DNA of 64,000 nt, from the NCBI GenBank assembly GCA_964349485.1, contig CAYGGE010000004.1:4628-68627 (forward strand), written 5' to 3'. This DNA is from an uncultured Candidatus Saccharibacteria bacterium (GTDB lineage Bacteria; Patescibacteriota; UBA1384; CAYGGE01). The position numbers were made by a program, and so were the translations under genes. Position 1 is the stretch's first letter, and every line of letters begins with the position of its first letter. This document shows positions 5,566-49,421 of this stretch, piece by piece. The notes under the pieces are model-generated. The model saw only the letters and a list, made by a program, of their open reading frames with translations, was not told where the DNA came from and searched no databases.

Positions 5566-5610
5566 AAAAAGCGAGGCTGTCCCAGTTAGGGACAGCCTCG
5601 CTTCATTTTT
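5566..5610. terminator. Bidirectional intrinsic terminator between convergent genes
   Basis: GCGAGGCTGTCCC-agtta-GGGACAGCCTCGC, a 13-bp stem, flanked by an A-run upstream and a T-run downstream. Confidence 0.65.
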
Positions 5611-12246: not shown

Positions 12247-12258
12247 CTCAATTGTATG

Positions 12259-12293
12259 TTTTAGGTGGGGTACCGCCGGCACCCCACCTAAAA
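12259..12293. terminator. Bidirectional intrinsic terminator
   Basis: TTTTAGGTGGGGT-accgccggc-ACCCCACCTAAAA, a 13-bp stem with A/T runs on both sides, lying between convergent genes. Confidence 0.6.
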
Positions 12294-12314
12294 CTATTCA
12301 GAGCCTCTTCGAGC

Positions 12315-22689: not shown

Positions 22690-23262
22690 ATGACTGTGTA
22701 TATCGTTGCTGGTGTTATTGTACTGTTTGTCCTCTGGCTTATCGGGATCTACAATGGCCTGACCGTCTCAAAGACGCGCGTCGACGAGGCTTGGAGTGAC
22801 ATTGACGTTCAATTGAAACGTCGCTACGATCTAATCCCTAACTTGGTTGAGACAGTAAAGGGTTATGCCACTCACGAGAAAACGGCCTTTGAATCAGTCA
22901 CGAAGGCTCGAACTGCGGCGATGAGTGCCAAAAGCCCAGAGCGTAAGGGCGATGCTGAGAACATGTTGAGCGAAGCATTAAAGAGCATCATTGCGATCGC
23001 CGAAGCCTATCCAGACTTGAAGGCGAACGAAAACTTCAAGCAACTTCAAGATGAACTATCCGATACCGAGAACAAAGTCCAAGCGGCTCGTCGATTCTAC
23101 AACGGCAATGTGCGTGACTTCAACATTAAAACCCAATTATTCCCGGCCAACATGGTTGCTGGTATGCTAGGCTTCGCCAGTCGTGAGTTCTTTGAGTTGG
23201 AAGCTGATGAACAGGCCGCTAAGCAACCAGTGAAGGTTGATTTTAACGATAAAACCGCTTAA
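22690..23262 (+). CDS. lemA: LemA family protein
   Basis: N-terminal TM followed by the LemA-typical ...YNGLTVSKTRVDEAWSDIDVQLKRRYDLIPNLVETVKGYATHE. Confidence 0.8.
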   Translation: MTVYIVAGVIVLFVLWLIGIYNGLTVSKTRVDEAWSDIDVQLKRRYDLIPNLVETVKGYATHEKTAFESVTKARTAAMSAKSPERKGDAENMLSEALKSIIAIAEAYPDLKANENFKQLQDELSDTENKVQAARRFYNGNVRDFNIKTQLFPANMVAGMLGFASREFFELEADEQAAKQPVKVDFNDKTA

Positions 23263-23276
23263 CTAATTAGTTGAGT

Positions 23277-23783
23277 ATGGAAAAGCAAGTTTTATCAGAT
23301 TTACAACCGGATGAGTTGACTGTCGGGTTAGCTGAGCAAGCGCCGGAGACTAATGGCCGGCTGTTTGATTCCCTTAAATCGGTGATTGACGTAGTATATG
23401 ATCAGACTGAGTTGAAATGTCAGCAGTGCGAACAGGTATATATCCAGGCACTACTGCAGATAAAGAAGAATATATCGAGACAACACGATGCTGCTATCGA
23501 AGTGCAGCTTGAGCTGTTAGAAGGTTTATATTTAGACTTCATTAGTCAATATGATGATATTGTCCATACTATCGATCAATATGAAGGACAACTGCAGGCA
23601 TTTACCTCGGATGTCACAATGAGCGATTTGGTCGCGCAACCGGCCATGAGAACACGGATAAATCACTTACAACTTGTGCTACTTGAATCGGTCAAGGATT
23701 TGCAGGCCAGGTTTGAGGTCTTGCAGGCATACGTCTTAGTCACTCTTGAACAGACCGACAGTGAGAGGTTGTACCCGAATTAA
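23277..23783 (+). CDS. Hypothetical protein, acidic and helical
   Basis: ORF directly after lemA; no recognisable motif. Confidence 0.4.
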   Translation: MEKQVLSDLQPDELTVGLAEQAPETNGRLFDSLKSVIDVVYDQTELKCQQCEQVYIQALLQIKKNISRQHDAAIEVQLELLEGLYLDFISQYDDIVHTIDQYEGQLQAFTSDVTMSDLVAQPAMRTRINHLQLVLLESVKDLQARFEVLQAYVLVTLEQTDSERLYPN

Positions 23784-23807
23784 TCGATAATCTTAGTTTT
23801 TTTCGTT

Positions 23808-23840
23808 TTGAGGGGGTGGCCAAACCGACCACCCCCTCAA
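23808..23840. terminator. Strong hairpin, probable terminator, at the left edge of a GC-rich islet
   Basis: TTGAGGGGGTGG-ccaaaccga-CCACCCCCTCAA, a perfect 12-bp stem. Confidence 0.5.
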
Positions 23841-23854
23841 ATTTGACTACTCGC

Positions 23855-24373
23855 CTATTTTGCCAGACGGTAGCAGTGTTCGCCCGGCACTATCGGTTGG
23901 CAGCTCACGCGACGGTTAGCGGCTTGGTCGGCCAGCATCTCATCTTCAGTATTGTATGTGCATATAGCGAAGATGATCGGGCAGGTGACTTGGCGATCTA
24001 TCACGTGCCCGGTGATGTCTACGGTCAGTATGACCCGGGCACCCCCCCAGTATTGGCTTCTTTCACTAGTTGTGCAGGTCCAACATACAATTGGACTACA
24101 GGGAGACGCTTCGACGCGCGCCTTCCATACCTCATGAGTATCGAACGTGGTCCTGCATCTATTACAGGTCACTTGCTCGGCAGGGCTGATACGTTCGATT
24201 ACCCCGTTACAGTGTTGACAGTTTACCCGCGCACCCCTGGCATTTGGCGGCGGTGTCGGTTGGGCACATGCCGGACAAGTGATGAGTGCGATACTTGTCA
24301 CCTCATCAATCCACAAACATGACATCGAAGCTACCTGGGCACACCTTGCCCACCTTTCGTCAGTATAGTACAT
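23855..24373 (-). CDS. Cys-rich zinc-ribbon protein (four CxxC pairs), function unknown
   Basis: CPAC...CQHC...CNRC...CWTC. Local GC is about 55-65% against roughly 40-50% in flanking housekeeping genes. The overlapping plus-strand ORF is judged a shadow. Confidence 0.5.
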   Translation of the reverse strand: MYYTDERWARCAQVASMSCLWIDEVTSIALITCPACAQPTPPPNARGARVNCQHCNGVIERISPAEQVTCNRCRTTFDTHEVWKARVEASPCSPIVCWTCTTSERSQYWGGARVILTVDITGHVIDRQVTCPIIFAICTYNTEDEMLADQAANRRVSCQPIVPGEHCYRLAK

Positions 24374-24494
24374 CTGTTACAGCACTTTGTCTAGGTTAGT
24401 AGGCAGTGGTTGCAGTGTGAAGCAACTGCAGTAGGCTTGACGCAGTCGTGGGCGATCCATTTGGACCGCCCACGATTGTAGACAGACTGAGTGC

Positions 24495-24908
24495 TCACCG
24501 TTCGACGATGAAGCAGGTTGCGGGGAAGGGTCTGGTCAGGTCATATTCGACATGAGGCCGATCATCACAATTGGGCTTGACTTGTGAGTATATCCCGATT
24601 TGTCCATCGACAGTGACTCGAAGATATACTCTTGACCTAGTTTGACCCCTGTCCCTTGCGGCCTGCGTACAACCTTCGCACAGGACGTAAGCCCCACTGG
24701 GCTGACGATATGCGTACTGGAACCATTCAGAGTCCAGCACGATTGGTGTTTGGCAGGCTGGGCAGTTACGATCAGATGGTGGGGCGACCCAGCCAATCGA
24801 CATCGCACAGCTCGGACATGCCGCGCTTCCTCCGATTGGAGGTTGGTTCATTCGTTTTTTACACGAGGGACATGCGATATCATTGTCCCTAGGTGCGAAC
24901 TGAGCCAT
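24495..24908 (-). CDS. Cys-rich zinc-ribbon protein, paralog of the previous
   Basis: CPSC...CPSC...CPAC...CEGC plus a shared C-terminal RV.L.V..G.I...QV motif. Start taken at MAQFAP; the track's upstream extension starts at TTG. Confidence 0.5.
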   Translation of the reverse strand: MAQFAPRDNDIACPSCKKRMNQPPIGGSAACPSCAMSIGWVAPPSDRNCPACQTPIVLDSEWFQYAYRQPSGAYVLCEGCTQAARDRGQTRSRVYLRVTVDGQIGIYSQVKPNCDDRPHVEYDLTRPFPATCFIVER

Positions 24909-25028
24909 CTTGCTACCTAGGCACGAGTTGCCTACCTTTCGTAGCCAAAGGATAGAATATATTACTAATTCTGTCCAGTCCTTACCAACCTCCCGATGGG
25001 TGACAGGTGAGATATGGTTTAGTATAGT

Positions 25029-26345
25029 ATGTTTATGATTCAAGCGTTACGACAGTTTTTTTCGATGAAGGCAGTTAGCAAATCACCGTGGTCCTATGTT
25101 GGCCTTGCCGTCATCGGCTTCTTTATATTCCTTCGTTGCTGGCGAATCAACTTACCGGCCGAAACCGTTTTCGATGAAGTTTATTTTCCAAAGATGGCGT
25201 ACCAGTACTTAACCGGCGAGACCTTCTTTGATATTCACCCACCCATAGGGAAACTGATTATTGCACTAGGGGAAATGATCTTTGGTAATACGCAACTTGG
25301 CTGGCGGATTATGCCACTGTTAGCTGGCATTGCCACAATTCCGGTAGCCTTCTGGACGAGCTACCAGGTATTTGCCGATAAGCGGGCGGGCTTTTTAACA
25401 GCTTTTCTTGTCGCCATTGACGGTCTGTTCATCGTTTACTCCCGAACTGGATTGATGGACGGTTTTTTAATCCTTTTCGGGCTGGCAGCCTTCGGCTATG
25501 CTTTTCAGTTCCGCCTACGGCGCCTCAAAGGTCAGTCGGCCTGGGGTCCGTTGCTCCTGACCGGTCTGTTTGCCGGTTTGGCGCTCGCCGTGAAGTGGAT
25601 CGGAGCGGGGTTTCTTCCGGTTGTCGCCTTGATTACGCTATCAACTCTCGTCTTCACCAAAGAGCGCCGGTCTGATGCTAGCGATTATCTCGTCTGGTTT
25701 GGCTCGTTAGTCGTACTACCGATAGTTCTCTACACCGTTCCATTCCTGGCTAACTGGCAGACTGACTTTTGGAATCAATTCATTACCTGGCATAAACAGT
25801 CTTGGCAGTACAATGTGAACCTTGATGCTACCCATCCCTATTCATCCAAGTGGTGGAGTTGGCCATTCTTGGTCCGGCCGATTTGGTTTTACTACAAGAG
25901 TGTGGATGCCCATATCATCGGGGTAGATGCGATCGGTAACCCCTTGGTATGGTGGAGTAGCACTCTCTCGGTCGTATATACCTTGATGGTCTTAGCATAT
26001 ACCGCGTTGATTCATAACCGAACCGAAGCGCCACTTGTTGAGAAGAAATACATTTACTCACTCCTAGCAGTCACTAGTGGTTGGGCAGCCTTCTATCTCC
26101 CATGGTCAGTAGTTGGCCGGGTTCTCTTTCTCTATCATTATTTTGCCAGCTATCTCTTCGCCTTATTATTGACAGGCTTCTGGCTTGGTCAAGTCTATAG
26201 CGTCAGTCGCCCGTTGCGTTACTTGGTTATCGCGCTTCTAGCTGCGTTTGTCACTTCTGGACTGTTCTTCGCCCCAATCTGGATCGCCCACCCCATCTCT
26301 CAGAGCTGGTTTGATCGCTTAATGTGGTTTAGGTCGTGGATCTAG
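25029..26345 (+). CDS. GT39/PMT-family (dolichyl-phosphate-mannose protein mannosyltransferase-like) membrane glycosyltransferase
   Basis: DEVYF acidic motif in the first loop, about 11 TM helices, and the conserved PMT region HPPIGKLIIALG. Confidence 0.7.
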   Translation: MFMIQALRQFFSMKAVSKSPWSYVGLAVIGFFIFLRCWRINLPAETVFDEVYFPKMAYQYLTGETFFDIHPPIGKLIIALGEMIFGNTQLGWRIMPLLAGIATIPVAFWTSYQVFADKRAGFLTAFLVAIDGLFIVYSRTGLMDGFLILFGLAAFGYAFQFRLRRLKGQSAWGPLLLTGLFAGLALAVKWIGAGFLPVVALITLSTLVFTKERRSDASDYLVWFGSLVVLPIVLYTVPFLANWQTDFWNQFITWHKQSWQYNVNLDATHPYSSKWWSWPFLVRPIWFYYKSVDAHIIGVDAIGNPLVWWSSTLSVVYTLMVLAYTALIHNRTEAPLVEKKYIYSLLAVTSGWAAFYLPWSVVGRVLFLYHYFASYLFALLLTGFWLGQVYSVSRPLRYLVIALLAAFVTSGLFFAPIWIAHPISQSWFDRLMWFRSWI

Positions 26346-29519: not shown

Positions 29520-29555
29520 ACGGTACGAAACATCCCCATTTCATTTCTTATATAG

Positions 29556-29587
29556 AAACGCCCGGCCGGAAACCCGGCTGGGCGTTT
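29556..29587. terminator. GC-rich hairpin, probable terminator, at the boundary of GC-rich islet 2
   Basis: AAACGCCCGGCCGG-aaac-CCGGCTGGGCGTTT, a 14-bp stem with one mismatch. Confidence 0.5.
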
Positions 29588-29619
29588 CGTGCGTTCTGTA
29601 TTGCCAGGGTTTCACCTGA

Positions 29620-29868
29620 CTAATCGGCACCGCATGGGCCAACGTACTGCGAGTAGTCGATGCCGAGATTGTATTCTGGATCGACCTGGGTCTGGCCGGG
29701 CATACATCGCTCATCGAGTGGAGCGGAAGTCTGGACGATGACAGCATCCAGTGGCAATCCAATCCCTTTCAGACACTCGGGGTCAATGCAGCGCTGCCCA
29801 TTACCAAGAGGCTTACCGCATTCGGTGCAAATCCTACCCTGTGTTGGCAGGAGGATTGTGGCGGACAT
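29620..29868 (-). CDS. Small zinc-ribbon protein, 82 aa
   Basis: CTEC...CIDPEC, with a GGAG SD on the minus strand. It shares the G.GLPLD......APL.E motif with the next gene. Confidence 0.5.
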   Translation of the reverse strand: MSATILLPTQGRICTECGKPLGNGQRCIDPECLKGIGLPLDAVIVQTSAPLDERCMPGQTQVDPEYNLGIDYSQYVGPCGAD

Positions 29869-30015
29869 CGATGTCTCCAGTTCCCTAAAGAGAGTAGGAA
29901 CTTTTCTGCCGATAGTTTAGCACCAATTATTCAAAAATACCAGTACTTCATGACTGGAATGCAAAGACCGGCGCGCTGACTGCGGCACCGGTCTTACTGA
30001 CTTCCCTGATGAGAA

Positions 30016-30282
30016 TTATCGTTTCTGAGCGGCTCGCCGTTTCAGTCGGCTGCCCAGACTGTTAATTTCTGACAACATCTCCCTTAGGCTCAGGCCAGTG
30101 AACCTGTAACGTTGCGTCTTCGGATTGAATTCAATCAGAGGGGCTGCCTGCAGCCGGAGATCGAGTGGAATTGCCAGGTAACCGACGTCCTGGACTAGGC
30201 GACAGCGAGTGCATCGGTGCTGTTCTGCCATCTCGGTATAGACAAGGATGCCATCGCACGAAGGATCTGGACAGGGTTCCAT
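30016..30282 (-). CDS. Small zinc-ribbon protein, 88 aa, paralog of the previous
   Basis: CPDPSC...CTRC, with an AAAGGAA SD. Motif LAIPLDLRLQAAPLIEF and a basic C-terminal tail. Confidence 0.5.
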   Translation of the reverse strand: MEPCPDPSCDGILVYTEMAEQHRCTRCRLVQDVGYLAIPLDLRLQAAPLIEFNPKTQRYRFTGLSLREMLSEINSLGSRLKRRAAQKR

Positions 30283-30424
30283 GCTCGTTCCTTTCTAGGC
30301 GCAAGTATTATTACCTTAGCATCGTATATTCTTTCGGTAAAGAGAAACCGGGCTCGTCACAGCGGACGCGCCCGGTTTCAAGGACTCCTCGATTTGCGGA
30401 CCTCGCGGGGTCCGCTGCTCGTCA

Positions 30425-30955
30425 CTACGCAGGGCACGGCACCCCCATAGCCCTGAAGAGGTCCTGAGGTGTGGACGCCACTGCCAGTGTGCCCACATAC
30501 TCTTCAAACGTGGCAACCAGGTCATCGACGTGGCCTATGTCGCAGAGTAGGCCGATCTTCCTACTTGTTCTTCGGGCCTCCCTGATTAGCTCACCCAGGA
30601 ACATGACGGTGTCAAATTCCAGCACTGTAGTCTCCACAATGTCCAGGACGACTATCGTGGCCTTGGGCCTTTCCTCGTCCACTAGCGCCAGAGACACGTT
30701 CATGCTGCGCTCGACAGCCTGGCTGATTCTCTCGCCGTCACCGTGCATGAGGATCAGTGCGAATAGGGGGAAGTATACTACCCCGAAGCGACATTCATTG
30801 CCGCCATCTAGGCTAGCCTTTTCCTCCCTATTTGGGAGGCTCAGCCAGTATGCATCAAAGCTCCCAGCTCCTTGTGCATACGGTTCGTAGATCACCTTTT
30901 GCCTGCTCTGAAGAGCATGCTTCACATGATCCCTAGGTGCGATGGCTGTTGACAC
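30425..30955 (-). CDS. Hypothetical protein with a STAS-like (anti-sigma-antagonist-like) C-terminal region
   Basis: Strong SD AAGGAGAAAA. ATIVVLDIVETTVLEFDTVMFLGELIREARRTSRKIGLLCDIGHVDDLVATFEEYVG resembles the STAS beta-alpha pattern; this is a weak call. Confidence 0.4.
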   Translation of the reverse strand: MSTAIAPRDHVKHALQSRQKVIYEPYAQGAGSFDAYWLSLPNREEKASLDGGNECRFGVVYFPLFALILMHGDGERISQAVERSMNVSLALVDEERPKATIVVLDIVETTVLEFDTVMFLGELIREARRTSRKIGLLCDIGHVDDLVATFEEYVGTLAVASTPQDLFRAMGVPCPA

Positions 30956-31098
30956 GTTTGTTTTCTCCTTTCGTGCGAAGCCAGTTGGCCCGAACTATAC
31001 ACTAAAATCTGTTTTAAGTCAAGTCGTGAAGTAGGATTCGTCGTGCAAATATGGATAATAACTGGTATTATTTTGACAAACAACAATATATGGAGTAG

Positions 31099-33204
<2,106 letters not shown>

Positions 33205-33299: not shown

Positions 33300-34511
33300 A
33301 TGTCGGTTCAAGGGGGAATATGTGCTGTTTTGTCGAGCGCTGGTGATGCGGCCAGGCTAACGGCAGCATCACTGTTCACTTTGCAGTACCGAGGGACGCA
33401 ATGTGCCGGCTTGACCGCCTTTGACAGTCATCGGCAGAGCGATCTGCATGGCGTCGGTTTAGTGAGAGATGTAATCAGGCTAAATGAGGATTACTACACT
33501 TCTGCGCTCGGTGCTGTCTTTCGTAAGGTCACTATCCAGCCGATCAAAATCGCGCAGGGAGTGGTGTTGGCGGTCTGTGGGAGACTAACTGACTCTAGCA
33601 GATTAGTCCACGATGAACTTGTTAGTCGACTCCAACTGGAAAGGGGTGGTACTCTATCTTGTCGACTAATTAGCGCCTTAAGTGGGCTGAACGGGGTATT
33701 CGTTGGTGTTATGGCGACACCGAGCGAGTTACTGGCTTTCTGTGACTCTTCCGGACTGCAAACTCTGGTCATCGGTCAGTTGGCTACTGGCTGGTGTGTC
33801 GCCACCGAGAGTTGTGGATTCGGCTTGGTCCAGGCAAGCTATATGCGTAAAGTTGGACCTGGCCAGCTGGTCAGATTGACGAGTGATGACTTGGTGATGA
33901 CACAGTTCGCGCCTAGTCAGCCTCGCCAATGCTCCATGCAATTGGTCTCATTGATGCGGCCAGACAGTTGCTATGGTGGGGGTGAGGTTCACTCGGTGCG
34001 TGTGCGGTCTGGCGCAGTGCTGGCCCGAGAGGCGCCAGCCACTGGCGATGTGGTTGTGGCGGTACCGGATGCCGCCATGGGGGCGGCCGTCGGTTACGCG
34101 ACTGAAGCGGGTATACGATTTGACCAGGCGATTTTCCGTAATCGCTATCCGGGCGCGACCGAATTGTGCCAGCAGTTTAACATCTTGCCGGAGACGGTGA
34201 ATGGTAAGCGAGTGGTTATCGTGGAAAACGCTGTCCACACCGGTCGAACTTTGACCTATGTGGTAAAGTCAATCCGCGAGGCAGGAGCAGGTGAGGTCCA
34301 TGTCCGGGTCGCTTCGCCACCGATCCGCTCTGTCTGTCTTTACGCCAATGGGGTTGAGCAGGCTGGACGACTGATTGCCGGACGTTCTTCGGTGGAAGAG
34401 ATTCGGCAGTTTCTCGACGTAGAGACGCTGGCCTTCTTAAGCGAAGCAGGCCTGCAGGAAGCAATTAAGTTGACTGCCGAACAGACCTGTCGGCAATGTA
34501 TGGCCGGCTAA
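33300..34511 (+). CDS. purF: Amidophosphoribosyltransferase-like protein (N-terminal-nucleophile class-II glutamine amidotransferase + PRTase)
   Basis: Short propeptide MSVQGGI before Cys8, and the PRTase PRPP loop VVIVENAVHTGRTLTYVVKSIREAGAGEVHVRVASPPI. Strong SD GGAGG. GC content is higher than in neighbouring genes. Confidence 0.7.
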   Translation: MSVQGGICAVLSSAGDAARLTAASLFTLQYRGTQCAGLTAFDSHRQSDLHGVGLVRDVIRLNEDYYTSALGAVFRKVTIQPIKIAQGVVLAVCGRLTDSSRLVHDELVSRLQLERGGTLSCRLISALSGLNGVFVGVMATPSELLAFCDSSGLQTLVIGQLATGWCVATESCGFGLVQASYMRKVGPGQLVRLTSDDLVMTQFAPSQPRQCSMQLVSLMRPDSCYGGGEVHSVRVRSGAVLAREAPATGDVVVAVPDAAMGAAVGYATEAGIRFDQAIFRNRYPGATELCQQFNILPETVNGKRVVIVENAVHTGRTLTYVVKSIREAGAGEVHVRVASPPIRSVCLYANGVEQAGRLIAGRSSVEEIRQFLDVETLAFLSEAGLQEAIKLTAEQTCRQCMAG

Positions 34512-34537: not shown

Positions 34538-34567
34538 GGTCAAGCTGGGGGCTCCCCCAGCTTGACC
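34538..34567 (+). terminator. Strong palindromic hairpin, probable terminator, after the purF-like gene
   Basis: GGTCAAGCTGGGGG-ct-CCCCCAGCTTGACC, a 14-bp perfect stem, followed by a second weaker hairpin at 34574-34602. Confidence 0.55.
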
Positions 34568-41352: not shown

Positions 41353-41394
41353 CGAGGCCAGGAGCATCAGCTCCTGGCCTCGGTGCGTTTTCGG
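41353..41394 (+). terminator. Intrinsic terminator after htrA
   Basis: CGAGGCCAGGAGC-atca-GCTCCTGGCCTCG, a 13-bp stem, followed by GTGCGTTTTCGG. Confidence 0.65.
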
Positions 41395-42308: not shown

Positions 42309-43205
42309 TCAACTGCCAACATGCTCAGTCATTAACATGTAGCGATCCAAACCTCGTAAATCTTTCCATACTTGCATCTTGGCCTTTGGCCAGAAAGATC
42401 GCATCAGCTTATGCATTAACTCTCCTTGAGTCTCGTCAATCTCACAAAAAATGGCTCGAGGGACCTTTCTTGAATCGACTAGTTTTTTGAATAGTTGTCG
42501 GTAAAGATCCAGTCCGTCTACTCCTCCGTCTAAGGCCAGAGAGGGTTCAAAGTCTTTGACATCTGCATCAAGTTTTGCGATGCGCTGGTGCGGCACATAG
42601 GGCAAGTTAGCGACAATGACTGGCTGATCTTCGAGTAACTCATCACTGTCCTCGGGCAGTAAATCAGCGCAGATAAATGTTATGACTTCCTGAAGCCCAT
42701 TGGCCACAGCGTTCGCACGGGCAACCTCTATTGCCGCATTCGAGACATCAATCGCATATATTTGTGGGGTGGTATCTGGACCTGCTGAAAGTTTGGTGGC
42801 GAGAGCGATAGCGATGTCCCCGCTACCGGTGCCGAGGTCAATAATCTTGCTTACCGGTTGTTGGTCGTGAGCGGCTTGCTGGGTAAAATCGACTACAAAC
42901 TTAACGAGTTCTTCCGTTTCTGGACGGGGGATTAGAACGTCTGGTGTGACTTTGAGTTTTAGGCCACAGAAATAGGTTTCACCCGTGATGTAGGCGACCG
43001 GTTCGTGTTTAGCTCGGCGATAGAGGAGTTGCTGGTATGAATTGAACTGTTTGTTCGATATTGCATGGTTGGCATCACGAAACAATTCGGTCCAGTTTTT
43101 ATTGACTACCCCTTGCAACAACAGTCGAGCTGAGCTGATCGGATCGATAACTGCAGTTTGTTGGAGTTGCCTGACTCCTTGTTTGAGAGCGTCACCAATT
43201 GTCAT
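42309..43205 (-). CDS. prmC: Release factor glutamine N5-methyltransferase
   Basis: SAM motif IIDLGTGSGDIAIALA and substrate motif NLPY (NPPY family). Confidence 0.85.
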   Translation of the reverse strand: MTIGDALKQGVRQLQQTAVIDPISSARLLLQGVVNKNWTELFRDANHAISNKQFNSYQQLLYRRAKHEPVAYITGETYFCGLKLKVTPDVLIPRPETEELVKFVVDFTQQAAHDQQPVSKIIDLGTGSGDIAIALATKLSAGPDTTPQIYAIDVSNAAIEVARANAVANGLQEVITFICADLLPEDSDELLEDQPVIVANLPYVPHQRIAKLDADVKDFEPSLALDGGVDGLDLYRQLFKKLVDSRKVPRAIFCEIDETQGELMHKLMRSFWPKAKMQVWKDLRGLDRYMLMTEHVGS

Positions 43206-48211: not shown

Positions 48212-48231
48212 TAAATCGCATGAATAACGGC

Positions 48232-48268
48232 AAAGGGCCGGCACCTACTGGTGCCGGCCCTTTGTTTA
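48232..48268. terminator. Bidirectional intrinsic terminator
   Basis: AAAGGGCCGGCACC-tact-GGTGCCGGCCCTTT followed by GTTTAGTG. Confidence 0.6.
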
Positions 48269-49246
48269 GTGCCTGACTTTAGGCCACCTGACGTTGCCGT
48301 CCGGTGCTAGTCTGACCAGCCGGTCATCCCACCACTCGATTTCTGACCAAACGGCCGTGTCGTGGGTGGTGGTCATGAACCGGCCGGGCTTGTTGGTGTC
48401 GATCTCAGTGACTGACAAGCAATCGCTAGTCAGGATCGCCACTCGGTAGATGCTTGCTTTATAGCTGGGATCAAACCTCACATCTCTCACGGCACTCGCC
48501 TTGTTAGGTGTCGTGTAGATAGCAGGCAAGGTCACTGGCAGGCTGGACTCGATGTCCCAGAGGACGGCGAGCTCACCCCCAGCGACGGCCAGATATCTGT
48601 CGTCTGGCGAGAATTCCATGGTGACGACTGGCGAGCATTCGCTCTCGTCTTTTAGGCTAGTTTTTTGTCTCCCGCCGTACATGATCGACACAACGGTTAT
48701 TGTCCCGTCAACCTCAGCCCAAGCGATCCGGTGACCGCTTGGGGAGATCGCAAGAGCAGTGATCATTTGATCACCTTGTCCTAGGAGATCCAATCCTCTG
48801 GCGGATTGCAAGACCACTCGATAGTAGTCATCATTTCGAGTGACCATACATAACTCGCCGCCTCGACTGACCGCGATCTGACGGACCATATCAGGTAATC
48901 CTTCGATCCAGCATGCCTGCTGGTTAAGGCAGTGGACCTGACCATGCGCATCAAGGGTGTACACCTTTGTGGCACTTTCTGAGAGGCCGATCTGGGTCAC
49001 TGGTGCCGTTCTGCCTCTTGCCTGTCTTTTGGTCTTAGCGGTGCTTAAGGTATCGACAATCTTGACGGTACCGTCAGTCATGCCGAAGACCAGAGTGTTC
49101 CCTGTGGCCGCCATGCTGGTGACCGTCGCTTCACGTCTGCATAAGGCGAACGGAATAGCAAGGACAGCTAGAATGATGCCTACACTCCAACACACTGCCG
49201 TATCTGTTCGAGACATGTTTTCCCTCTCCCCGACAAGGACCGGCAA
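48266..49246 (-). CDS. Membrane-anchored WD40-like beta-propeller protein
   Basis: N-terminal TM helix, then repeated ...DGTVKIVD..., SPSGHRIAWAEVDGTITVV and SPDDRYLAVAGGELAVLWD blades. GC-rich. Confidence 0.55.
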   Translation of the reverse strand: MPVLVGERENMSRTDTAVCWSVGIILAVLAIPFALCRREATVTSMAATGNTLVFGMTDGTVKIVDTLSTAKTKRQARGRTAPVTQIGLSESATKVYTLDAHGQVHCLNQQACWIEGLPDMVRQIAVSRGGELCMVTRNDDYYRVVLQSARGLDLLGQGDQMITALAISPSGHRIAWAEVDGTITVVSIMYGGRQKTSLKDESECSPVVTMEFSPDDRYLAVAGGELAVLWDIESSLPVTLPAIYTTPNKASAVRDVRFDPSYKASIYRVAILTSDCLSVTEIDTNKPGRFMTTTHDTAVWSEIEWWDDRLVRLAPDGNVRWPKVRH

Positions 49247-49394: not shown

Positions 49395-49421
49395 GCGACC
49401 GGTCCTGCTTGGACCGGTCGC
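49395..49421 (-). terminator. Hairpin terminator between the two WD40 paralogs
   Basis: GCGACCGGTCC-tgctt-GGACCGGTCGC, an 11-bp stem. Confidence 0.5.

Follow-up and report, generated by a model that had tools for sequence, protein, structure and literature searches.

A tandem pair of probable double zinc-ribbon genes with a common leader in a flexible islet of a Candidatus Saccharibacteria genome

Between the LemA and PMT/GT39 genes of a Candidatus Saccharibacteria genome lies a short segment that likely holds two real, separately transcribed genes, here called geneA and geneB. In our best explanation, they derive from an old tandem duplication of promoter, leader, and ORF, encode double zinc ribbons, and occupy a replacement hot spot. 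Taken as a question of its own, gene status is probable for both, and we are far less sure of any specific function. They look like a fairly ordinary strain-specific accessory pair, namely orphan small zinc-ribbon proteins in a flexible islet. The window, which is the whole 64,000-nucleotide stretch of DNA that was analysed, has a GC content of 48.1% and is matched at 100% identity by four independently assembled contigs, the longest of 135.6 kb. As this identical sequence was assembled from four samples or runs, an assembly artefact is ruled out. The segment and its ORFs are as follows.

23263..24998, no strand: variable segment (flexible islet) of 1.74 kb, from the LemA stop to the conserved PMT promoter, holding orf170 (plus strand), geneA, and geneB (both minus strand)
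23271..23783, plus strand: orf170, native-looking, convergent with geneA, publicly called as 168 aa
23855..24325, minus strand: geneA, 156 aa from the ATG at 24325 (frame open to 24373), with CxxC at residues 17-20, 36-39, 54-57, and 81-84
24495..24908, minus strand: geneB, 137 aa, with CxxC at residues 13-16, 31-34, 49-52, and 77-80

The gene order across the region is L9, a 202-aa protein, LemA, orf170, the minus-strand pair geneA and geneB, PMT/GT39, HAD, DUF2207, HtpX, a second islet (islet 2), and LigA, with Pfam identifying the flanking genes as LemA (E=1.8e-61) and PMT/GT39. Comparison genomes were taken from GTDB MAGs by GT39/PMT identity, and comprise L006 (75%, labelled Berkelbacteria), L005 (60%), and L007 (41%), the latter two labelled Candidatus Saccharibacteria. 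PMT directly follows LemA in L005 and L007, with gaps of 12 and 15 nt and no insert. L006 carries an unrelated 1.4-kb insert at the equivalent site (GC 59% versus 51%), which encodes two minus-strand genes of 117 and 262 aa, each with its own SD and terminator hairpin; profile searches with these two genes returned no family matches. In alignments with L006 and L005, homology stops at the LemA stop (23262) and restarts at the PMT promoter GGTGACA..GTTTAGTATAGT (24999), and because these are the true boundaries, orf170 belongs inside the variable segment. This ORF has a codon score of +0.16 and a GC123 of 0.57/0.26/0.47. Its family search gave VirB5/T4SS-like matches alone, weak and below cut-off, and tblastn of the related loci gave no match, the ORF being missing from L005, L006, and L007. 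Neither an integrase, a tRNA, nor flanking repeats were found in the islet and its neighbours. Conserved flanks with different or no cargo in relatives characterize a flexible genomic islet, and this arrangement is the one observed. The initial annotation had proposed a presence/absence check in related genomes; the check agrees with a lineage-specific islet, absent from L005 and L007 and represented by other genes in L006. To judge from these alignments, the LemA-GT39/PMT gap is a replacement hot spot where relatives hold other genes or none, and it illustrates how tiny hot spots between conserved genes may exchange cargo in ultra-small epibiont genomes.

Two minus-strand ORFs, 23855..24373 (172 aa) and 24495..24908 (137 aa), had been described as tandem paralogues that carry four CxxC pairs each. 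Both ORFs exist and both have exactly four such pairs; stop-to-stop ORFs of 35 aa or more number 902 in the 64-kb window, and geneA and geneB alone exceed two. The motifs are CPACAQ, CQHCNG, CNRCRT, and CWTCTT in geneA and CPSCKK, CPSCAM, CPACQT, and CEGCTQ in geneB. The knuckles are colinear, with geneA/geneB spacings of 15/15, 14/13, and 23/24 residues, and cysteine accounts for 9.0% and 7.3% of the two proteins, respectively, as opposed to 0.8% in long ORFs. The proteins share 25% identity (BLASTP E=1e-6), and their Smith-Waterman score of 89 was reached by none of 5000 residue shuffles (32.6±5.7, z about 10). When the Cys positions were fixed and the remaining residues shuffled, the score of 89 was still beyond all 5000 shuffles (41±8.6), so residues other than Cys contribute once the alignment is anchored; with Cys masked, the similarity signal is gone. 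Moreover, the remaining 35 frame pairs between the geneA and geneB regions score 22-44, and at the DNA level the two regions cannot be aligned. Confinement of the similarity to frame -0 versus frame -0 indicates that constraint acted on these two protein frames. Together with the matching Cys spacing, the frame-specific score supports the earlier view of tandem paralogues built on a zinc-ribbon-like eight-Cys scaffold. A shared C-terminal block, given as RV.L.V..G.I...QV, stands in part. RV.L.V is present and the glycine fits once the spacing is written V...G (one more residue before Gly), but the block has no significance of its own, the C-terminal parts compared alone scoring 27 versus 22±4 (p about 0.14). 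The predicted products are small, soluble proteins of 17 and 15 kDa without a signal peptide. Public gene calls contain the 172-aa minus-strand ORF (geneA) on three contigs and a 168-aa plus-strand ORF on one, and geneB is missing from all those examined. One overlooked gene and a corrected geneA start may accordingly be added to a Saccharibacteria genome.

The correction of the start derives from the sequences upstream of the two ORFs.

24365..24393, minus strand: geneA promoter-like site, TAGACA-17-TACTAT, falling inside the 172-aa ORF call
24949..24977, minus strand: geneB promoter-like site, TGGACA-17-TATCCT
24331..24360, minus strand: leader A, with ACGAAAGGT, a 5-bp stem (24351-24347 / 24341-24337), a 5-nt loop, and AGGTAG
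24342-24331, minus strand: leader A uORF, GTG CCC AGG TAG, 3 codons
24913..24942, minus strand: leader B, with ACGAAAGGT, a 5-bp stem (24933-24929 / 24923-24919), a 5-nt loop, and AGGTAG
24924-24913, minus strand: leader B uORF, GTG CCT AGG TAG

Both leaders can be written as one common element, ACGAAAGGT-rGGCA-5 nt-TGCCy-AGGTAGC, which stops 4-5 nt short of each ATG, and a sigma70-like site, TrGACA-17-TAyyyT, is present at an equal distance upstream of both. Across the 64 kb, there are exactly two matches to the 28-nt pattern GAAAGG-N10-GTGCCNAGGTAG, where 0 are expected. Within a 31-nt leader block, 26 positions are identical between the copies, and the five that differ comprise one compensatory pair at the stem base (G:C to A:T) and three loop bases. 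In both copies the uORF, GTG-CCY-AGG-TAG, reads VPR*, its sole difference being synonymous. Upstream of this uORF, at a distance of 6-7 nt, is GAAAGGT, a canonical SD separated from the main ATG by about 25 nt; this GAAAGGT (ACGAAAGG) is the usual SD context of this genome and is also seen at LemA, p176, and z88. A start at 24373 would precede the -10 hexamer and would lack an SD. On the strength of the shared leader and SD, the geneA start is therefore placed at 24325 (156 aa) as the most likely position, rather than at 24373.

It is probable that translation of both genes depends on this leader, through the GAAAGGT SD, the hairpin, and the uORF GTG-CCY-AGG-TAG close to the ATG; the two sequences at hand are consistent with a small hairpin and also with a mini-ORF coupled to the main start. 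The conserved hairpin/uORF leader is a candidate for translational control in a phylum for which experimental genetics hardly exists. We propose that the whole unit of promoter, leader, and ORF was duplicated in tandem long ago to yield geneA and geneB, and that each would be transcribed separately from its own minus-strand promoter.

A very stable hairpin follows each of the two genes.

23807..23841, no strand: hairpin 1, a perfect 13-bp GC-rich stem with a 9-nt loop, located between the stops of orf170 and geneA where the two converge, without a U-tract on either strand
24443..24478, no strand: hairpin 2, downstream of geneB, a 13-bp stem with a 4-nt loop as RNA and no U-tract

Two of the palindromes reported in the initial annotation are real and somewhat larger than described: the perfect hairpin at 23808-23840 has a 13-bp stem spanning 23807-23841 (-31.6 kcal/mol, z=-6.3 versus shuffles), and the GC hairpin at 24443-24470 extends to 24478 with a 13-bp stem (17-nt arms of 88% complementarity, z -4.9 versus shuffles). 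The third, a PstI-centred palindrome, is a trivial 5-6-bp stem. The proposal that hairpins mark the borders of the islet did not hold up, as GC hairpins of like size (13-15 bp) are found behind other genes throughout the window. The window contains 10 perfect stems with 9 bp or more, compared with 1-4 in shuffles; most of the 10 are GC-rich, 13-15 bp long, free of a U-tract, and located at gene ends, including behind both WD40 paralogues. Given that the same type occurs at these other gene ends, the islet hairpins are best regarded as ordinary 3'-end hairpins of this genome and not as borders of a mobile unit. A terminator scan of 23200-25200 found 0 canonical intrinsic terminators, the hairpin tails being AACGAAAAAAA and CUGCGUCAAGCC, and hairpin 1 was rejected as a canonical bidirectional terminator, with its T-tract upstream and its A-tract downstream. 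Hairpin-plus-T terminators are present at the islet-2 genes of the window. Integron cassettes, for which we required a promoterless ORF followed by attC with RYYYAAC/GTTRRRY cores and intI nearby, were likewise rejected; each gene has its own promoter-like site, the hairpins show no attC cores, and no intI lies nearby.

The sequences of geneA and geneB are known from one strain. No homologues were found among about 15 billion proteins. More specifically, word-indexed searches of 5.8 billion clusters with geneA, geneB, and the plus-strand ORF returned self matches only, and a HMMER profile search run exhaustively over 1.84 billion representatives returned geneA itself and Cys-repeat proteins only. 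The non-self matches are long CPxC-x15-CxxC repeat proteins with 2-22 matched stretches each, mostly at least 3. Five of these repeat proteins were scanned against Pfam, giving Zn_ribbon_4, DZR, or other zinc-ribbon models or, in one of them, a protein-kinase domain. Neither geneA nor geneB reached a Pfam gathering threshold (DZR PF12773, Zn_ribbon_3/4/6, RING-like); the best geneB matches were zf-C3HC4_3 at 19.9 bits (cut-off 27) and DZR at 16.4 bits (cut-off 27.3), and the best geneA match had E=0.035. PHROGs and PADLOC gave no match (best E=0.0018, to a PHROG without assigned function, and E=0.048), neither NCBIfam nor the PDB sequences yielded a match above threshold, and IMG/VR gave nothing with either the protein profile or the leader pattern. 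No relative of geneA or geneB was present in the fetched related loci. A JGI metagenome scan with PMT found nothing, and with the PMT alignment it gave relatives of at most 34% identity over full-length PMT and no geneA/geneB homologues. An exact LemA look-up for strain variants recovered the same strain only. Two candidate matches were rejected, namely a geneB tblastn match in L007, which is antisense within a methyltransferase gene, and an HMM match at 42533-42679, which is out of frame inside a PrmC-like gene. AlphaFold2 models built from the two-sequence alignment had a pLDDT of 44.8 and 42.6 overall and of about 60-73 for the first ribbon alone.

The alternative that survives best, although we consider it quite unlikely, is that the segment is non-coding or decaying DNA, for example what is left of an acquired element, or a structured RNA, in which the ORFs are no longer translated or never were. 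Codon statistics favour it. With codon log-odds for which 24 long ORFs of the window served as the training set, native genes score +0.25±0.065 per codon, compared with about -0.11 to -0.13 for geneA and -0.14 for geneB, and both have a flat GC123 without a period-3 GC signal. The orphan status of the pair, the lack of a public call for geneB, and the low confidence of the structure models point the same way. However, both ORFs are intact, and the eight Cys and their spacing have been kept although the DNA has diverged past recognition. The leader and SD have been kept as well, with changes that are structure-preserving and synonymous. As for a structured RNA, Rfam 15 yielded no covariance-model match even at E up to 5 beyond chance-level ones on the hairpin (E 2.9 and 3.7), and none for the leader.

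It is also conceivable, though improbable, that only a single copy is functional, its partner being a redundant duplicate on the way to loss. In such a scenario geneB would be the expendable copy, since pipelines call geneA and not geneB and the geneB -10 hexamer, TATCCT, is weak. Yet geneB keeps a 137-codon frame, its eight ligand Cys, a full leader, and a strong 3' hairpin, and at 25% identity the duplication is old, so that an unselected copy would carry stops.

The GC excess of the islet proved modest, and describing the islet as GC-rich was overstated as a sign of foreign composition. The islet has a GC content of 53.7% versus 48.1% for the window (z=2.46, within the top 2% of equal-sized windows), and equal or higher values occur in islet 2 and at 33.2-34.9 kb and 49.3-50.6 kb. 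It is codon position 2 that carries the excess (0.535 versus 0.406±0.052, z 2.5), and GC3 is normal at 0.56 and 0.51 versus 0.503±0.044 (z 1.3 and 0.1). The GC richness is therefore attributed mainly to a composition rich in Cys, Pro, Ala, Gly, Arg, and Thr and not to a foreign mutational signature. A recent import, for example from a phage or a high-GC actinobacterial host, is very improbable in this light. It could draw on the 5.6-point GC excess over the window mean, on hairpins that lack U-tracts as do mycobacterial I-shaped terminators (PMC12288462), and on the frequency of genomic islands in Patescibacteria (PMC12455944). Against these stand the GC3 at the genome mean, a leader with this genome's own SD context ACGAAAGG, the same hairpin type behind other genes of the window, the empty PHROGs, PADLOC, and IMG/VR searches, and the lack of integrase, tRNA, and flanking repeats.

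The remaining question concerns the coding strand, as long ORFs occur on both strands of the islet, in agreement with the initial annotation.

23816..24322, plus strand: ORF of 168 aa, an antisense shadow in codon register with geneA, judged non-coding

The proposed comparison of GC3 and codon usage with core genes was carried out and left the strand undecided: GC3 is normal, codon scores of the minus-strand genes are negative, the antisense frame scores no worse (about 0 per codon), GC123 is flat, and RNY statistics are symmetric between the strands. What identifies the zinc-ribbon strand as the protein-constrained one is the frame-specific paralogy, the shared leader and promoter, and the behaviour of the plus-strand ORF, which starts within a hairpin, runs in the geneA codon register, stops opposite geneA codon 2, and matches itself only, as expected of an antisense shadow. 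A conserved plus-strand frame, which would have overturned the minus-strand assignment, was not found. That the plus-strand ORF is real and co-directional with orf170, with the minus-strand ORF as its shadow, is extremely improbable, for its slightly higher codon score (+0.004 versus -0.13) and its single public call on a 1.5-kb Logan contig are outweighed by a homologue search that returns the ORF alone, a GTG start within the 13-bp hairpin and no spaced SD, the absence of the Cys pattern, plus frames of the geneA region that resemble no frame of the geneB region while the minus/minus pair scores 89, a promoter and leader shared on the minus strand, and an exact geneA codon register in which geneA codon 2 (TCA) is complementary to its stop. 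The locus offers a clear-cut case in which paralogy confined to one frame pair, together with a leader present in both copies, can decide which strand is coding when codon statistics and gene callers do not.

Returning to geneA and geneB as two genes on the minus strand, a zinc ribbon is defined structurally by two CxxC knuckles about 10-25 residues apart on beta-hairpins. Both proteins have knuckles at such spacing, and the short beta-hairpin strands that flank them come from the low-confidence AF2 models. Some CPxCG proteins bind no zinc, and CxxC is no guarantee of zinc binding (PMC11241148). The most likely arrangement of the eight colinear Cys would be a pair of Zn(Cys)4 zinc-ribbon modules, behind which comes a beta-rich tail with little conservation. 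The ribbons would most likely serve as zinc-stabilised binding modules, and their rigid surfaces may contact nucleic acid or another protein. The process involved may be accessory and specific to the strain, possibly one of interaction with phage or host. A DnaJ-type zinc finger (four CxxCxGxG) was rejected, as the motifs differ and Pfam DnaJ_CXXCXGXG gave no match. Equating the two islet-2 proteins with this family was not borne out; each has one CxxC and one CxxxxC rather than four CxxC. Residues 39-75 of geneA are similar to the one ribbon present in z88, an islet-2 protein (13/40 identical, E=8e-5, SW z 7); this weak local similarity, seen for z88 only, hints at a module common to both islets. 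A wider reading, tentative and rather unlikely, is that geneA and geneB found a fast-evolving double zinc-ribbon family which shares with the single-ribbon proteins between HtpX and LigA the small replacement hot spots of otherwise streamlined Saccharibacteria genomes, acts in phage or host conflict or interaction, and is translated under the gate of a dedicated leader with hairpin and uORF. If the proteins are zinc-dependent binders in host or phage interaction, they could provide an entry point to the large orphan fraction of CPR proteomes.

Several known systems resemble parts of this locus. With DZR (PF12773) and Zn_ribbon_4 (PF13717, MJ0042 type), which are the sole sub-threshold matches of the geneA/geneB profile, the two proteins share CPxC-x15-CxxC knuckle pairs, whereas their fixed four-knuckle array and 55-70-aa tail have no counterpart in 1.84 billion representatives. 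Translation can be coupled through a short leader ORF, or the SD can be repositioned by a hairpin, as in phage T4 gene 38. The present leaders are like that type in having an SD about 25 nt from the ATG, a hairpin between the two, and a 3-codon uORF that ends 4-5 nt before the ATG, and they differ in being represented by two sequences only, with a role that is predicted.

I-shaped intrinsic terminators without a U-tract have been described for mycobacteria (PMC12288462). They are similar to the islet hairpins in that a stable GC-rich hairpin without poly-U lies at most 50 nt from the stop, although the present organism is not an actinobacterium and a terminator role here is putative. The C(P)XCG micro-proteins of Haloferax volcanii (PMC11241148, PMC10716476) are, like the geneA and geneB products, small cytoplasmic proteins with paired CPxC-type motifs and are often orphan-like. 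The Haloferax proteins are archaeal, shorter than 70 aa, and usually have two motifs that are followed by Gly, whereas the present proteins are bacterial, are 156 and 137 aa long, and have four motifs each, none followed by Gly; CPxC occurs in four of the eight motifs (one in geneA, three in geneB). Membership in the C(P)XCG micro-proteins was rejected on these grounds of length and Gly context. Finally, genomic islands and horizontal gene transfer are documented in Patescibacteria (PMC12455944). Compared with these islands, the present segment is tiny (1.7 kb), lacks mobility genes, and has a GC3 that is not deviant and so offers no compositional proof of transfer; it is nevertheless like the flexible islets and acquired islands of Patescibacteria in that the same LemA and PMT flanks enclose nothing, the geneA/geneB segment, or an unrelated insert.

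Islet 2, the second variable GC-rich segment of the window, carries three minus-strand genes (z82, z88, and p176), each with a separate terminator. The segment, one of its genes, and its counterparts in two related genomes are located as follows.

29541-31100: islet 2, the HtpX-LigA gap
30016-30282, minus strand: z88, whose single ribbon has the form CxxxxC-x14-CxxC
L006 12005-15400 and L005 7120-8100: counterpart regions of islet 2

The z88 ribbon aligns to CxxC pairs (knuckles) 2-3 (residues 39-75) of geneA, one of the two paralogous predicted zinc-ribbon genes of islet 1, with 13/40 identities that include AEQ..C.RCR (E=8e-5, Smith-Waterman z ~7). This alignment hints that islets 1 and 2 have a module in common. 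In both L006 and L005, other small single-zinc-ribbon ORFs occupy the HtpX-LigA gap, and two of these, L006 12906-13247 and L005 7801-8091, are similar to each other (Smith-Waterman z 5.4). A homologue of p176 adjoins LigA in L006 (25% identity, E 1e-11).

Three further features concern the spot between LemA and PMT, the GT39 gene, in the window and in L006, the closest genome.

23271-23783, plus strand: orf170, 8 nt after LemA
L006 5978-7402, genes on the minus strand: insert of two orphan genes (117 and 262 aa)
24999-25037: region of the PMT promoter-like site GTGACA-17-TATAGT, which ends at 25028

The codon usage of orf170 is native, its sole matches are weak VirB5/T4SS-like ones that fall far under the cut-off (E 6e-4 and 0.011), and the gene is absent downstream of LemA in L005, L006, and the third related genome, L007. 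Both genes of the L006 insert possess a canonical Shine-Dalgarno sequence and a GC hairpin, and neither has an above-threshold match in Pfam, PHROGs, PADLOC, or NCBIfam. The block GGTGACA..GTTTAGTATAGT at the PMT promoter is also conserved in L006. Because the called PMT start, ATG 25035, lies 7 nt past the -10 hexamer, the PMT mRNA may be leaderless in the window genome; PMT in L006 has a 27-nt leader with a Shine-Dalgarno sequence.

A 2.5-kb contig from another assembly (L004; ENA k141_973572) matches the window over 2440 of 2542 nt, and the last ~100 nt at one end, which do not align, are probably an artefact of the assembly end.

GC-rich genes and perfect hairpins occur elsewhere in the window.

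33300-34511, plus strand: 403-aa ORF in the window's most GC-rich stretch (up to 0.58)
48266-49246, minus strand: WD40 paralogue 1, 326 aa
49441-50463, minus strand: WD40 paralogue 2, 340 aa
48231-48264 and 49395-49421: perfect GC-rich hairpins (15 or 11 bp), one 3' of each WD40 paralogue
5569-5603, 12258-12294, 34538-34567, 41353-41382, 48231-48264, and others: perfect hairpins of the window

The 403-aa ORF, which is followed by the 13-bp hairpin at 34538-34567, yielded nothing beyond a weak phosphoribosyltransferase domain match (E 1.9e-9). The WD40 genes form a second tandem pair of paralogues in the window (Smith-Waterman score 414) in DNA with a GC content of 0.54-0.56, and both proteins comprise an N-terminal transmembrane segment followed by a WD40 beta-propeller. 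The window contains 10 perfect hairpins with stems of 9 bp or more, versus 1-4 in shuffles, and the majority are GC-rich, 13-15 bp in length, free of a U-tract, and positioned at the 3' ends of genes. This set suggests that the genome has a U-tract-independent type of terminator or 3'-end hairpin.
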